Below, piece after piece: positions 9,382 through 64,000 of a DNA stretch of 64,000 bases. Position 1 is the first letter of the stretch. Each line of letters begins with the position of its first letter. Location of the stretch: the NCBI GenBank assembly GCA_964016885.1, contig OZ024740.1, forward strand, positions 208,940,001 to 209,004,000, read 5' to 3'. The position numbers and the translations under genes are program-made. Below the pieces are notes generated by a model. That model was not told where the DNA came from and searched no databases. It was given only the letters and a program-made list of their open reading frames with translations. This DNA is from Eledone cirrhosa. Taxonomy: Eukaryota.

Positions 9382-9812
9382 ATATCAATGATATTAATAA
9401 ATGGAAACTATATTTATAAAAACCATATTTATTCTATTATATTTATTTCAAGGGTACCAAAACTTTGGTACGCTCTCATCAGATAAAATACAAAGTTTGT
9501 TTTATAAATAGTGACATACCCAGGAATCAGACCTTAACGGTTCAAGTTCCGTCTGGATAGTCAGACGGAACTTGAACCGTTAAGGTCTGATCCCTGGGTA
9601 TATCACTATTTATAAAACAAACTTTGTATTTTATCTGATGAGAGCGTACCAAAGTTTTGGTACCCTTGAAATATATATAATAGAATAAATATGGTTTTTA
9701 TAAATATAGTTTCCATTTATTAATATCATTGATATTAATAAATTTGTCGAGTTCTTCGAATCTGTTATAAATATATTTGTTGAATTACCAACAAATTAAA
9801 TATCCCTTTGCT
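9382..9812 (+). mobile_element. Palindromic PLE pseudo-LTR-like element (about 174-bp arms + 75-bp tail) in (TA)n
   Basis: Arms 9382-9555 / 9562-9735 nearly perfect; hammerhead core in each arm; tail similar to 37560-37660. Confidence 0.75.
9627..9687 (+). ncRNA. Minimal type I hammerhead ribozyme
   Basis: TATTTTAT-CTGATGA-[GAGCGTACCAAA GT TTTGGTACCCTT]-GAAA-TATATATA-ATAGAATA; stem I pairs, AUA cleavage triplet. Confidence 0.8.
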
Positions 9813-9860
9813 TATATATATATATATATATATATATATATATATATATATATATATATA

Positions 9861-10353
9861 CGGGATAACAGATTATTGTTATAGGTAGTCCACTTAGGTG
9901 TAGTCCAGTTAGGGTACTCCGAGTAGTGGATGGTATCAACGTTGGCTAAGTTTGACTCAACAAGGTGTTTCCATAGTGATGTTGCGAGTACGCCGTGATT
10001 TCTATGTTGTTAACACTTGGAGTAATGATAAATCAAAAAAGAAGAGTGACACGGTTTGCTATACAATAAGGGCTTTAATCACATTGCTGACAATTGTTTC
10101 TCTGAACTGGTAGGTCTAGAGATCGCTACTCGCCTGTTTCTGCGTCAATCGATCACCAATACATAGTTATAACCTCGTTATAAGCTCGCAAGATCTGATG
10201 AATTGACTGGTTATAACTATGTATTGGTGATCGATTGACGCAGAAACAGGCGAGTAGCGATCTCTAGACCTACCAGTTCAGAGAAACAATTGTCAGCAAT
10301 GTGATTAAAGCCCTTATTGTATAGCAAACCGTGTCACTCTTCTTTCTTGATTT
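9861..10353 (-). mobile_element. (TA)n-flanked element with 145-bp inverted repeat, PLE pLTR-like
   Basis: Arms 10030-10174 / 10209-10353; GAAAC-AATT-GTC hammerhead 3' half; second copy 35407-35735. Confidence 0.6.
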
Positions 10354-10899
10354 ATATATATATATATATATATATATATATATATATATATATATATATA
10401 TATATATATATATATATATATATATATATATACAGGTATAATTGTGCATATATGTATGTGTGTATTTGTATATATATATATATATATATATACACTTGTG
10501 TATATATGTATATTTATGTATGTGTGTAGATATATATGTGTGTGTGTGCGTTTGTATTTGTATGTGGTTATGTATGTTATGTATGCACATGTATGTGGGT
10601 ATATATCTATATATACATGTGTATATGTATGTGTGTGTATATGTAGATGTGAGTGTATGTATATATTTATTTATGTTTATATCTTTATTTGTATGTGTAT
10701 GTGTGTGTGTATATACGTACACACACACACACACACACACACACACACACACACACACACACACACACACACACACACACACACATACACACACACACAA
10801 CACACACACACATTTCTTATCTTTTATAATATTTTTTATCAAATTTATATTTCTCTTTATATTTATCATCTATTTAATTTTTTCAATAAGTTTGTATAG

Positions 10900-11300
10900 T
10901 AATGTGCTAGAGTGGTTTGACGCTATATTTCTGTAGTTGGACAACATAGATTTTCCATGCATTATGGCGTCATTTCGGATTTTTTAAATGTAAACATTTT
11001 CTTTGGTTGCTGGCTGTCGTGTGTTTTGGTGAAGTTATAATAAGGTTTTTTAATCTTAAATAACTGATTTTGAAAAGTCCCAGGAAGGGATGAAACGTTC
11101 GTAGATCAACATTTAATTTAAAAACGTGTTTGGTGTCTATTTTAATGAATAATTTGCTTCTAGTGTAATTATTATTTTTAGCACAATAGGATTTTGTATA
11201 CATGCTTTTTTGAGAAATTCTTTCAAACAAGCATGAAACATAACCTTTTGTACTGCTTTTTATAATCAATTACTCTATTTTTAGCTGTTTTTAACTTCTC
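10900..11300 (-). pseudogene. Possible decayed Penelope-like RT-EN linker remnant
   Basis: ORF 10970-11269 (KGYVSCLF...FKISYLRLKNL...RKC) resembles the PLE linker. Confidence 0.3.
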
Positions 11301-11366
11301 CACCTATGTTTCTAATGTTTTTATATTGTTTTTGTAAAAAACGATATCTATTTCATATATATATAT

Positions 11367-12180
11367 ACTAGCTGAGGTACCCGGTAATACTCGGGAGCGG
11401 GGGTATTCCCAGTTCCCATTAAAATGCCCAATGCCTCTCAGGCCAAAAATGAAGGACAGATAATCAAACGCGAAGACAAATTCATTTACGAAGCAATAAT
11501 ACAATTATTGTTGATTGCATTGGTCAGGCGAAAAAATGTTTGTCAGAGAAGTTGAGTGTTGCTATAAGGAAAAAAATAGAACCCCCATTAGGGTGTCTTA
11601 ATATTATTGAAATTTGCTGAAATTTTGTGAATAGGCATCATATCTTGTCATTTACCCATGGTTTAAATTTCATATAAATCGAAGGGAAAAAATGTTCAGC
11701 GGGGGTTTTCAGCGGGGTTTTTGTGCTCCCGGGGAACCTATTGATTAAATGAAATATACTTATCCAAGTACCCCGGGCAATGTAGTTTCAGAATATATAT
11801 GGTTATGGGGGTCTATCTCCAAAAACCATAGGAGGAGTTCGTGAAATCTTGTTCCATTTATTGGCCAAAATGTTCACTATAGAGTTTAATCCCCATTAGG
11901 GTGTCATAACATTATTGGAATTTGCTGAAATTCTGTGAATAGACATCATATCTTGTCATTTACCTATGGTTTAAATTTCATATAAATCGAAGGGAAAAAT
12001 TTAAGCGAGGGTTTTCAGCGGGGGCTTGAATCCCCGGGGAACCCTTTGATTAAAATGAAATATACGTAAGAAATCAAATGGACATGAGCCCCACACACGT
12101 GTCAAGTTTCAGCAAGATCGGTTTGGTAGTTTTTGAGTTTTAGGTTCGCAAACAAACAAACAGACAGAAATTGCCATTTA
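11367..12180 (+). mobile_element. Non-autonomous Helentron/HINE-like element
   Basis: ACTAGCTGAGGTACCCGG start; internal duplication (11582-11765 vs 11891-12065); 3' end aagtttcagcaagatcgg...caaacaaacagacaga...(TA)n. Confidence 0.55.
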
Positions 12181-12339
12181 TATATATATATATATATATA
12201 TATATATATATATATATCGGCCTGCCCGCCCAGCCAGTGGGGTGGCGTTATCTTATGGCTAAAACAGCATGAAGTGCTGTGACCAGCGGCGCCGATTGGC
12301 GCCCGACAGACTGGTCGGTCAAGGTGATCAAGGTGATAT

Positions 12340-61615: not shown

Positions 61616-61781
61616 CGGAAAATTAACGAAATGACAGCTGGAAAGAGAGAAGGCAGCAACAGTCCTGGACTGATACTTTCTTGATTTACCCCGAAGTGAT
61701 GAAAATCAAAGTGGGCCTCAGAGGGATTTACATTCAGAGCCATAAAATGCCGGACTGAATAAGCAACACTATGAAGATTAA

Positions 61782-61968
61782 GGGGCGGTGGATTGGCAGT
61801 GTCGGTAGAGGGTCGGACGCCATGCTTTCCAGCATAGTTACGTCCCTTTACGATCTGAATTCAAATCCCGCCGAGGTTGACTTTGCCTTTCATCCTTACG
61901 GGGTCGATAAAATAAAGTACCAGTAATGCACTGGATAATTGCTGGCCTTGTGCCTAAAGTAGAAACAA
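61782..61968 (+). mobile_element. tRNA-derived SINE with 16-bp TSD
   Basis: actatgaagattaagg on both sides. Confidence 0.9.
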
Positions 61969-62854
61969 CTATGAAGATTAAGGTTTCTGGTAGAAATATC
62001 TAGAAAATACTCAGCTGCTGATACGAAGATTCAAAGAGTAAACTGTTCAATATTTCGAACAATTCCTTTACTCATCGGATTAAATGTATGCATATGGGGT
62101 TGCGTACACACACACACACACACACACACACACACACACACACACACACACACACACACACACACCCATCCACACACACACACACACACATACACACACA
62201 CACACACACACACACACACACACACACACATCCACACACACACACACACACACACATACACACACACACATACACACACACACACCCATCCACACATACA
62301 CACACACACACATCCTCCCACACACACACCCACACACACGCACACACACATACACACACACACACACATCCCCCCCACACATCCACACACACACACACAC
62401 ACACACACCCCACACACATACACACACATACACACACACACACCCACACACACCTACACACACCTTGATAACATCTGTCTTCTCCATTTGGTAGCTGGTT
62501 TGGTCCATGGCTGGTTTACAATATGGGGATTGCAGCTTGGGGTTGGTTTAGCGGGGGTTATCAGTACAGTATTTTCTGAGTATTTTGATTACTGGTTAAG
62601 GTGATCAATGGTTTTATTTATATACATACATACAAACATACATACATATACACACACAAACACATATATATATTCACACATATATTGTGTGTGTGTGCGT
62701 TTGACTACAAAGATATATTCCACTGTACATTGAGAAATCTTCTGAATTAATCTGAAGTCACCTTTCTTGGTCACAAAACCCCGACAATATTCCTTGCTAA
62801 AACAGTGTGATCCTATATGCCAGGGGATCACCTTATATGCCAACAAAATACGGT

Positions 62855-63064
62855 AAAATTGTTTCTACTTTTGGCACAAGGCCAGCAATTACCTAGTGTA
62901 TTACTGGTACTTTATTTTATCGACCCCGTAAGGATGAAAGGCAAAGATAACCTCGGCGGGATTTGAACTCAGAATGGCAAGGGCCGTAACTCTATGTGTC
63001 AAAGCATGGCGTCCGACCCTCTACCGATACTGCCAATCCACCGCCCTTTGCCAATCCACCGCCA
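62855..63064 (-). mobile_element. tRNA-derived SINE
   Basis: Family sequence with duplicated 5' end. Confidence 0.85.
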
Positions 63065-63140
63065 GTAATAATATCTGAAGGACATAAGAATTATGAGTTT
63101 TTATAAAACTAAACACGATTCTCTTTCTTATTATTTCCAG

Positions 63141-63203
63141 AGTATGAGTCTCAGAGAACAGCATGGCGCTGAAAAACTTATTGACGAGTACACACCACCA
63201 GAG
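63141..63203 (+). CDS. Candidate 63-nt host exon (SMSLREQHGAEKLIDEYTPPE)
   Basis: Pyrimidine tract + ttccag acceptor, GAG|gtaaga donor, open frame, length a multiple of 3. Confidence 0.45.
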
Positions 63204-64000
63204 GTAAGACGAATTTATAAATCTTAAAATATTTTAAAAGAAATATTGTTAATAAGATCATGATTATTCAGACTATTAATTTTATTTTTAGAGATGAAAC
63301 ATTAAATATATATATATATATTGAAAAGGGTCCGCCGAGCTGCGGATTATAGAGTCGGGTAAGATCGATACAGATCGAACCTTGAGCTGATCAGTGGCGA
63401 AAAGCGCGTCACCTACCAATAAATGTAATGAAGGAGTAACCAATCGTCCTTGTTATCTTATCAATATAATACACTCTGTATAGCTCTACACCTCGACACA
63501 GAAGTGAACCTAAACATCGAGTGCTCACCCGGGTGAACCTACACTAACTCCAAGTTACACTCTCTCTCTCTCTCTCTCTCTCTCTCTATATATATATATA
63601 TATATATATATATATATATATATAATAGAATAATCGAGTATCGGAAAATCAGCTCACGAATTAACGATAAACAAATCCGATATGAGTGGCAGAGGGCTCA
63701 ATAATTTGGATAAATCAGAGCTATAACTATCGTTAAATTACCAACACATAAAGATTAAGCCTAAAATCACCCGTGCAGCCGAAAAAAAACGACCAGGAGG
63801 ATTCGGGTCACTCAAATAAAATATCAATAAATCAATAATTTAAATGAATATATATATATAGAATATAAAACGAAAAATCAGTGATGCGTCTGAACTCAAT
63901 TTATTGTGTGTTACAATTGTTTCGCCGGCGGACAGCTCGAGACGTGATCATTGTGTGGATCTGTCTGATTCTGGATCCGCAGGTTCGACGGATACGTCTA

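Follow-up and report, generated by a model that had tools for sequence, protein, structure and literature searches.

The YYGAGTDCY motif that recurs beside microsatellite junctions in the Eledone cirrhosa genome is the 3′ arm of a bulged hairpin, RCUC-[helix]-UH-GAGY, in which 2 nt are bulged and pairs covary. By its sequence context, this hairpin belongs to Hydra-clade Penelope-like elements (PLEs), where it lies in noncoding sequence after the hammerhead and before the start codon, and it is conserved in such elements from many hosts. The reverse transcriptase (RT) of these elements probably binds the hairpin in RNA and starts cDNA synthesis at its 5′ side, with nicked (TA)n DNA as the primer; the hairpin is usually present in two copies, h1 and h2, and element ends map approximately 5–9 nt upstream of its foot.

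All 9-mers quoted in the original prediction were found at their coordinates in the window (the whole 64-kb stretch of DNA analyzed). YYGAGTDCY fitted 11 of the 14 sites listed there (9 on the plus and 2 on the minus strand), and at all 14 a microsatellite at the element end lay approximately 41–70 nt beyond the motif site. The whole window contains 18 matches, and for the 7 that were not listed the next microsatellite is 229–8435 nt away. In 590 kb taken as evenly spaced stretches, the motif was present at 35–80 nt from 33 of 594 (TA)n flanks, versus 2 of the same flanks for a control interval at 90–135 nt; the reverse complement occurred at 2 flanks and the reversed word at 1, and 4 of 130 CA/TG flanks and none of 75 flanks of other repeats carried it. 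The proposed association with microsatellite junctions is real, and the enrichment at (TA)n flanks is strong and beyond chance. Genome-wide, TTGAGTRCY-N35-65-(TA)9 matched 38,746 times on the forward strand and 248,771 times on the reverse, compared with 3,178 forward and 619 reverse for its backwards control, the reverse-strand counts being inflated because the pattern slides along the TA tract. The density of the motif is uneven (9 of 74 (TA)n flanks in the window and 2 of 90 across the neighboring 200 kb), and 68 motif matches from this genome fell into 25 clusters, a count made with the last base relaxed and including pattern-selected loci and some chance matches. The relaxed word THGAGY showed no strand specificity near TA tracts (79 versus 69). 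A count of a GAGC pattern was discarded as evidence of enrichment, being only about 4-fold and dominated by the hammerhead stem of family A at short ends.

What had been described as a linear motif is instead half of a hairpin, and the covarying structure that was to be sought in the element tails was found. Covariation was counted on 53 hairpins whose pairing had not been used to find the sites and whose relatedness was partly removed by clustering. With a 2-nt bulge the first inner pair is formed in 48 of the 53, and with bulges of 0, 1, 3, or 4 nt in 4, 4, 9, and 16. This pair is C-G in 32 hairpins and U-A in 14, so that it is Watson-Crick in 46, against a permutation mean of 26.5 (none of 2000 permutations reached 46). 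The first bulge base is U in 49 of 53. For the outer pair the count (A-U 14, G-C 13, and G-U 1 in 28 own-genome hairpins with inner lengths of 6–71 nt) is descriptive, since pairing was enforced and one of 29 rows was dropped for a mis-set range. The change between GAGT and GAGC on the 3′ arm is matched by ACTC and GCTC on the 5′ arm, and this compensation leaves the suggested splice-related signal without support. As folds the hairpins are weak: the probability of the central pair exceeds 0.5 in 28 of 53, and the hairpin is the minimum-energy fold in 7 of 9 tested. At locus L069 the bulge of h1 is a variant one, and the bases 5′ of the hairpin foot are A/U-rich. Among the best 150 of 156 matches of an Rfam scan of the window, none was to a hammerhead and none lay at the motif. 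Almost all Rfam matches in the window were repeat-driven miRNA noise.

In each family, the 3′ ends of inserted copies fall at two discrete positions, both approximately 5–9 nt upstream of a hairpin foot. What is seen as the motif is h1, and it marks the short end, whereas h2 marks the long end and is not copied; short ends are typical of inverted copies, and the tail of the long end contains h1. The motif had been thought to set an end 40–70 nt downstream of itself, but this distance is the spacing from h1 to the site before the second hairpin. The idea of a conserved PLE cis-signal tied to the element end holds, and the direction of its positioning does not. In an automated count, 105 of 167 TA-abutting ends lay 3–10 nt before a foot; this count was left uncorrected for a finder that missed h1 of L069 and mis-assigned h2 of L433, whose 14 ends, mapped 6 nt before h2, were scored as misses, and mapped ends number only 1–4 in several families. 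For family A, 50 of 53 ends are 3–10 nt before the foot. Among metagenome elements, 19 of 28 ends fall within −6 to 9 nt of a foot (14% expected) and 9 are not near one. The offset is constant while the inner length varies from 6 to 71 nt. Beyond the long end of family A, the predicted h2 was found in 312 matches versus 0 in the control, starting 6 nt after that end in all 100 matches listed, and a Hydra open reading frame (ORF) then follows in 10 of 14 loci. The tails of the six families with both ends mapped measure approximately 68 (B), 80 (A), 89 (L433), 95 (L211), 101 (L241), and 161 (L069) nt, outside the 30–40 bp tail length of PLEs. In family B, 6–8 nt separate the long end (30 of the family's 61 ends) from a plain GCAC/GTGC hairpin that lacks the bulge-GAG core, so not every start requires the complete motif. 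Many ends fall at TA-like bases, which suggests that priming by microhomology contributes.

These features can be traced in individual copies of the window. In family A, h1 at 37205..37228 (+; finder and fold) has an ACTC arm, a 4-bp inner helix, a TT bulge, and GAGT, and the copy ends at 37276 before (TA)n; a family A copy with a predicted hammerhead-like core at 55499..55565 (+; pattern match) and an h1 of this family at 55612..55635 (+), with ACTT as 5′ arm and a long end at approximately 55683, also lie in the window. The family B h1 at 47534..47552 (+), with a mutated 5′ arm, has its long end at 47595 and stands beside an inverted short-end copy starting at approximately 47425. A B-like copy carries a hammerhead-like core at 45281..45311 (+; pattern match) and an h1 at 45364..45383 (+) that is not the minimum-energy fold, and ends at approximately 45439. 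The family C copy has a hammerhead-like core at 9635..9671 (+; pattern match), an inverted short-end copy from approximately 9386, and only the 3′ arm of h1 at 9747..9755 (+), with its end at 9812; the 5′ arm, lost here, is intact in its relatives L023, L042, and L063. A C-like h1 with a shortened inner part at 37580..37593 (+) was recognized by sequence and unscored by the finder. A hammerhead core at 47052..47082 (+; pattern match) has an inverted copy at 46923 on the minus strand, and the h1 at 47152..47178 (+) has a short end 8 nt before its foot and a long end at approximately 47241. The h1 at 56302..56337 (+), with a 26-nt inner part, is not the minimum-energy fold, and two relatives have short ends approximately 7 nt before the foot. 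The h1 at 63473..63522 (+) has a 40-nt inner part, and its copy ends at (CT)n at 63560; that at 47324..47404 (−; fold z −3.7) has a 71-nt inner part and resembles Hydra family L420–L425.

Several sites changed status. The CGGAGTACC variants on the minus strand (9913..9921, and at 35467) are not the conserved motif, and the true family F hairpin ends approximately 40 nt further upstream, at 9955..10023 (−) in a copy with a long end at 9861, an inverted short-end copy ending at approximately 10352, and a tail that resembles Hydra locus L069, and at 35502..35555 (−) in a second copy. The site at 44842..44850 (+; TTGAGTACG) is unsupported as a member: it does not fit the pattern, it has no nearby 5′ arm, and the one other copy that was found differs at the motif. 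The 3′ arm at 55775..55783 (−), with no 5′ arm within 135 nt, is an uncertain member; its relative L114 has a distant ACTC. Conversely, the GAGC form was absent from the earlier list, an example being the 3′ arm of h1 of Hydra family L100/L433 at 50354..50362 (+), whose 5′ arm was removed by an inversion junction; the long end is at approximately 50397 and the inverted short end at approximately 50280. The statement that most sites lie downstream of a hammerhead held in part: of 15 window members tested, 8 have a hammerhead-like core upstream on the same strand, but one of these (47488) belongs to a neighboring insertion and one (35692) is doubtful.

The elements had also been called unrelated, yet the families that can be joined to an ORF are all of the Hydra clade. 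They have a single ORF for an RT with a GIY-YIG endonuclease at the C terminus (full ORFs in L159, L163, and others), RWR/RWK and DKT motifs, a CxCX5C linker, and CxxC and CxH surrounding the conserved E and N, and lack CCHH; putative hammerheads, recognized by core patterns, lie upstream of the hairpins, and insertion into (TA)n was seen. Copies from the window joined to a Hydra ORF through family copies are those at 37223, 55630, 47547, 45378, and 50354; those at 9960, 35507, and 47329 are linked to Hydra by tail resemblance alone, and those at 9747, 37588, 47173, 56332, 63517, and 55783 have no join to an ORF. A Hydra-type GIY-YIG endonuclease coding remnant lies at 38263..38571 (−; tblastn E 8e-15). 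The motif of family B is 96 nt before the ATG, and the Met aligned to other Hydra N-termini lies approximately 20–160 nt downstream of the hairpins. The hairpin was present in 45 of 63 upstream regions of metagenome Hydra ORFs (approximately 2.1 kb) versus a mean of 4.6 after shuffling and 5 among the ORF controls. By cluster, 33 of 41 carry it, 19 of them in two or more copies, and the GAG/CUC search anchor is absent in the other 8, some of which are truncated or interrupted. Neptune families (CX2-5CxxC linker with CCHH) and families with a Poseidon-type endonuclease, both retrieved from this genome by a Pfam GIY-YIG search, gave no hairpin matches in 8 end regions or in 5 regions upstream; the end regions are the better control since 2 of the 5 upstream regions (L101 and L114) are probably off the true start codon.

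The Hydra clade described by Craig et al. 2021 shares the C-terminal GIY-YIG, RW(K/R), DKT, CxCX5C, CxxC, and CxH, as well as the hammerhead, (TA)n targets, and tandem and inverted 5′-truncated copies (PMC8557442). Its elements are generally below 3 kb (PMC8557442), whereas some families here exceed 3 kb; family A has a tandem period of approximately 3.5 kb, and the 3′ UTR of family B is long and repetitive. The available portions of that paper do not describe a hairpin in the pLTR, which is visible, unremarked, in 3 of its 6 Hydra consensuses (PMC8557442). The motif was to be mapped on PLE consensuses, and the 3 that show the hairpin are from a coral and a sea cucumber; the canonical hairpin was not seen in the visible ends of Hydra-1_Obim and Hydra-1_Crog and is only partial in Hydra-1_Amil. 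For PAc, of the Poseidon clade, two internal RT start sites match the tail ends in vitro, their spacing equals the optional tail, and, as here, the sites are downstream of a hammerhead and the target is AT-rich (PMC11167929). PAc differs in that starts fall in an AC-rich stem-loop within the ORF, with a conserved positioning element undefined in the available text (PMC11167929), while in the Hydra families the putative start sites are in the 5′ UTR, each tied to a repeated conserved hairpin 3′ of the site.

The hairpin also resembles the arginine sandwich motif of HIV TAR and 7SK, with a bulged U after a Watson-Crick pair and a variable second bulge base (PMC6189040, PMC11885821, and PMC7864049). 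The pair before the bulge is Watson-Crick at the frequency given above, and an A-U flanked by two G-C pairs lies 3′ of the bulge, except at the second site of family B; G-C, A-U, and G-C are the nucleotides of the U23.A27-U38 triple of TAR, flanked by G26-C39 and G28-C37. The GAG/CUC core had served as the search anchor, and for it the anchor frequency was compared with shuffles. The 2-nt bulge is as in HIV-2. In contrast to TAR, the Hydra hairpin is circularly permuted, the GAG/CUC helix being its base rather than the apical stem, and it has no conserved loop but a conserved 3′ single-stranded AC(U). The resemblance implies no homology, and the triple and the arginine binding are predictions.

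LINE and SINE 3′ stem-loops, the R2 3′ UTR, hepadnavirus epsilon, and the telomerase boundary element are examples in which a small RNA structure selects a template or fixes where copying starts or stops. The Hydra hairpin differs from such RT-recruiting RNAs in lying 3′ of a putative internal start, being uncopied from that start, and being duplicated, which gives two ends. Since ends fall a few bases before a hairpin, the hairpin likely tells the RT where copying starts. The element RT would bind the hairpin in the template RNA, and cDNA synthesis would begin just 5′ of it on nicked (TA)n DNA; a start before h1 would give the short end and a start before h2 the long end with h1 in its tail, which would explain the optional tail of PLEs. 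Binding at the RNA level is likely, as is, by analogy with PAc, initiation at the mapped ends, and RT binding or initiation, among the roles first suggested, is likely the best reading of the motif. An arginine may read the bulge as a TAR-like U.A-U triple, and this residue could belong to an invariant RxR stretch between the RT and the endonuclease. Candidate arginines are the invariant R477 and R479, in a low-confidence linker of the protein model of a metagenome member, and R37, R167, and R194. The predicted model of a metagenome Hydra protein is closest to TERT; the fold search gave TERT and other RTs at low TM-score, with no PLE among the matches listed and no indication of where RNA is bound, and a sequence search of solved structures found no relative.

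The hairpin could instead act in DNA, as single-stranded cDNA or a cruciform, with the GIY-YIG endonuclease cutting 5–9 nt upstream while resolving an intermediate, so that the ends would be cut sites. Craig et al. attribute the tail to endonuclease-mediated resolution (PMC8557442), cleavage by the D. virilis endonuclease is reported to depend on the tail (Frangieh 2024, PMC11167929), and the covariation fits RNA and single-stranded DNA alike. We nevertheless consider this unlikely, given that the RT start sites of PAc, as measured on RNA, are also where its tail ends (PMC11167929), that the long end is set by h2, which is absent from the cDNA if synthesis starts before it, and that the U-bulged form and the hammerhead share a strand. 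It also seems rather unlikely that the ends are set where the nicked (TA)n primer anneals to unpaired AU-rich RNA, with the hairpin serving as an RNP-assembly, folding, or translation element that keeps such RNA unpaired at its foot by coincidence: only 24 of 237 TA sites are in the 3–10 nt interval used, yet 105 of 167 ends are; major ends without TATA homology occur (family B short end, L241, and L421); and the offset is independent of inner length. Most junctions do overlap TA-like bases in the RNA, and the A/U-rich bases 5′ of the foot and the plain hairpin at the second start of family B favor annealing.

An antisense-template, self-priming model has been argued for rotifer PLEs (PMC3846280), and if these elements were copied from an antisense transcript, the motif would mark a promoter or 5′ end and the ends would be cDNA stops. 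The wobble-pair comparison (G-U versus A-C, approximately 14 versus 11) leaves the strand undecided, but the PAc template in vitro is pLTR-ORF RNA (PMC11167929) and a helix that covaries and differs in length would not be required of a promoter, which makes this reading very improbable. Coding constraint, a splice signal, or one recently expanded family is largely refuted and retains hardly any probability. The family B motif is within an open frame upstream of the ATG and the PAc tail is inside the ORF (PMC11167929), but the aligned Hydra start Met is downstream of the hairpins, the arms covary, and the motif extends over 25 own-genome and 33 metagenome clusters, so that a single expanded family does not explain it.

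Initiation by an RT bound to the hairpin, the reading that we prefer, bears on the choice of internal start sites by PLEs and on their optional tail, for which the in vitro system of PAc located the sites and gave no positioning signal. The candidates offered here are a small conserved element, a ruler rule (start approximately 5–9 nt before the foot), and a protein motif, and the rule provides a boundary for annotating a very abundant repeat class. We tentatively propose, at somewhat less than even chances, that this is an ancient, independently evolved TAR-like hairpin, duplicated in the 5′ UTR and gripped by the arginine-rich linker of a telomerase-related RT to measure the cDNA start, that its duplication would be the origin of the two-ended tail, and that a portable hairpin of approximately 25 nt might suffice to direct internal initiation on any RNA. 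Outside viruses and 7SK, it may be a case of convergence on the TAR fold, and it is possibly a minimal template signal for a compact RT-endonuclease of approximately 700 residues that targets (TA)n.

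The 9-mers quoted in the original prediction are present in the window at their coordinates, and 11 of the 14 sites fit the YYGAGTDCY pattern that it proposed. The other 3, the site at 44842 and two CGGAGTACC variants, are not members and were rejected; the real motif of the same family sits approximately 40 nt upstream of the variants. As anticipated, the motif is commoner before (TA)n than in controls: in evenly spaced stretches covering 590 kb it preceded the tract in 33 of 594 flanks, versus 2, 2, and 1 in three controls. Across the 3.0-Gb animal genome in which the window occupies C1:208,940,001-209,004,000, pattern matches before (TA)n numbered 38,746 / 248,771, versus 3,178 / 619 for the backwards control. 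The sequences carrying the motif are varied: 68 matches from this genome formed 25 sequence clusters.

The motif had been described as a linear word, and it is instead one half of a bulged hairpin: an upstream ACTC arm pairs with GAGT, and an inner helix closes directly before two pyrimidines that form the bulge. Other families use the alternative arm pair GCTC/GAGC. In a hand-picked set from this genome in which pairing was enforced (28 of 29 rows kept), the outer pair was A-U in 14, G-C in 13, and G-U in 1, the first inner pair was C-G in 15 and U-A in 13, the bulge was TT in 19, TA in 4, TC in 4, and CT in 1, and the inner part ranged from 6 to 71 nt. Covariation was then analyzed free of pairing assumptions in 53 hairpins from 41 metagenome clusters, using an anchor defined by sequence only that 8/41 clusters lack. 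With a 2-nt bulge the first inner pair forms in 48/53 hairpins, versus 4, 4, 9, and 16 in the other registers, and it is Watson-Crick in 46/53 versus 26.5 on permutation (0 of 2,000 permutations as high), kinship among these hairpins being only partly removed through clustering. U occupies the first bulge position in 49/53. Hairpin stability is weak: the hairpin is the minimum-energy fold in 7/9, and its central pair probability exceeds 0.5 in 28/53. A single-stranded ACUCU is conserved after GAGC in most metagenome hairpins (L298-L375 upstream regions) and is eroded in several families of this genome.

When the family of window site 47547 was extended, it yielded ORFs with RWR, DKT, CxCX5C, CxxC, and CxH, features ascribed to the Hydra clade of Penelope-like elements (PLEs) by Craig et al. 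(PMC8557442). By their sequence, the motif-bearing families that could be joined to an ORF, which do not include 6 window members, are assigned to this clade. The order hammerhead, hairpin, ATG is kept in 27 of 30 near-full-length copies of the 47547 family (family B), one with a variant base; the ATG falls 96 nt after the motif, so the motif is non-coding. Families L208/L211, L238, L241, L244, L100/L433, and L420 have both a first (h1) and a second (h2) hairpin copy between hammerhead and start codon. Outside this genome, strict hairpins occur in 45/63 metagenome Hydra upstream regions, versus a shuffle mean of 4.6 (maximum 9, 30 shuffles) and 5 in the ORF control; the antisense control gave 15 matches because the arms are self-complementary. 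At least 2 copies occur in 19/41 metagenome clusters. Among six published Hydra consensuses the hairpin is found in 3 (Hydra-2_Amil, Hydra-1_Ajap, and Hydra-2_Ajap) and partly in one further, and it was not seen in the displayed ends of 2. Recent activity is suggested for families B and L211 by their many near-identical copies, whose long open frames run to 758 and 844 codons. In the family B 3' UTR two more GAGTACC words, possibly relics of older ends, come directly after the stop codon and ahead of a long degenerate TA/TG tract (L156:2640-2725).

Neptune and Poseidon-like families of this genome likewise have two ends at (TA)n, and gave 0 matches to the Hydra hairpin, whether at ends (8 regions) or upstream (5 regions). 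In four Neptune families (L101, L104, L119, and L120) two discrete ends lie approximately 40-66 nt from each other, AC-rich sequence comes after them, and the Hydra hairpin is absent; these families may have a repeated end signal of their own. One Neptune 3' UTR (L119:5365-5430, also 3390-3430) contains an antisense fragment resembling a motif-bearing Hydra tail. The window itself holds a 5'-truncated Poseidon-like PLE (47612-48949, minus strand; 52% identical to L111) that ends at (TA)n without the Hydra hairpin, and coding fragments of a decayed Neptune-like PLE (43272-43947, plus strand). It further contains remnants of broken non-LTR retrotransposons that retain APE endonuclease and RT domains (301-3946, minus strand; 15119-17055 and 28079-31687, plus strand), two of the three also with zf-RVT, a 5S rRNA match narrowly above the Rfam cut-off (40615-40723, plus strand; 39.6 versus 38) and may form the leading part of a 5S-derived repeat, a weak methyl-CpG-binding-domain match under the Pfam cut-off (5030-6061, minus strand; E 0.005), and a minisatellite of 44/88-nt period and approximately 29 units (58538-59814).

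On full-length references, TA-abutting ends form two peaks per family, a short end before h1 and a long end before h2. With the tract's first T as zero point, a few bases' uncertainty from TA overlap, and several families resting on 1-4 mapped ends each, the distances to h1 and h2 are, respectively, 8 and 6 nt in family A, 5 and 6 nt in L433, 9 and 6 nt in L211, 7 and 7 nt in L241, 7 and 8 nt in L069, and 9 and 8 nt in L421; in family B the distance to h1 is 6 nt. Inverted copies stop approximately 7-9 nt before ACTC whether the arm-to-motif distance is 13 or 49 nt. An automated tally placed 105/167 ends 3-10 nt before the hairpin base, or foot, versus 24/237 TA sites; the 62 missed ends include 14 L433 long ends mis-assigned by the script and 30 family B long ends. 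In metagenome contigs 19/28 ends fell within -6 to 9 nt of a foot, versus 14% expected. An h2 was also predicted past the family A long end, in sequence then unseen, and a pattern requiring the arms, with inner helix and exact offset left free, gave 312 matches versus 0 in the control; GCTC stands 6 nt after the long end in 100/100 among the matches listed, and a Hydra ORF start follows in 10/14 loci. Because ends lie a few nucleotides before hairpins and h2 was found there, the 40-70 nt over which an upstream motif had been thought to set the element end measures how far h1 lies from the start before h2. At least 7 head-to-tail 299-bp repeats with the family A long end and h2 (G000:C2:356030062-356031903, in the searched genome) are a possible non-autonomous retrozyme-like array derived from the Hydra pLTR.

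In the Poseidon-clade element PAc, reverse transcription has two internal start sites matching the genomic tail ends, according to the in vitro study (Frangieh et al. 2024, PMC11167929). Because of that match, the two Hydra ends may likewise be start sites. By this analogy it is quite probable that the Hydra protein would bind h1 or h2, that the endonuclease would nick (TA)n, and that cDNA would start on the 5' side of the bound hairpin, approximately 5-9 nt away; a start at h2 would copy h1 into the genome, giving the motif first noticed. The RT-initiation role offered in the original prediction is, in this form, the likely model.

Not every end has this arrangement. At 6-8 nt past its long end, family B has a plain GCAC/GTGC hairpin without bulge, which retains position and a helix of 4-5 bp and lacks the core, and 9/28 metagenome ends have no nearby foot. 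Since TA-like bases are overlapped at most junctions, microhomology is probably an aid to priming. Among rival readings, a hairpin that serves as a cut signal in DNA is improbable, and AU-rich priming to which the hairpin is incidental is slightly more so; an antisense template is very unlikely, and a coding, splicing, or single-family origin is least credible.

The hairpin core also has a likeness to TAR. In the TAR arginine sandwich two G-C pairs enclose a U.A-U triple (PMC6189040, PMC11885821, and PMC7864049). The nucleotides defining it are also those of the Hydra core, U-H-G-A-G / C-U-C following a Watson-Crick pair, in an arrangement circularly permuted relative to TAR; the core shares a 2-nt bulge with HIV-2 TAR and fits its tolerance pattern, the first bulge base being fixed and the second free. 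Residues invariant among 40 aligned proteins include R37, R167, and R194 and, within a basic linker, R477 and R479 (L302 numbering). The structure model is confident (mean pLDDT 89), with the R477/R479 linker a low-confidence stretch, and its fold is nearest to TERT. That this linker reads the hairpin is a tentative hypothesis, somewhat less likely than its negation. Comparison systems include LINE 3' stem-loops, R2, epsilon, and telomerase.

The Hydra clade, the PLE tail, and internal initiation are already known. We found no description of the hairpin in the full-text literature, a coverage that leaves out most subscription journals and Repbase reports. The Hydra PLE hairpin is a real, structured cis-element, apparently undescribed, and it supplies a simple rule for both element ends.
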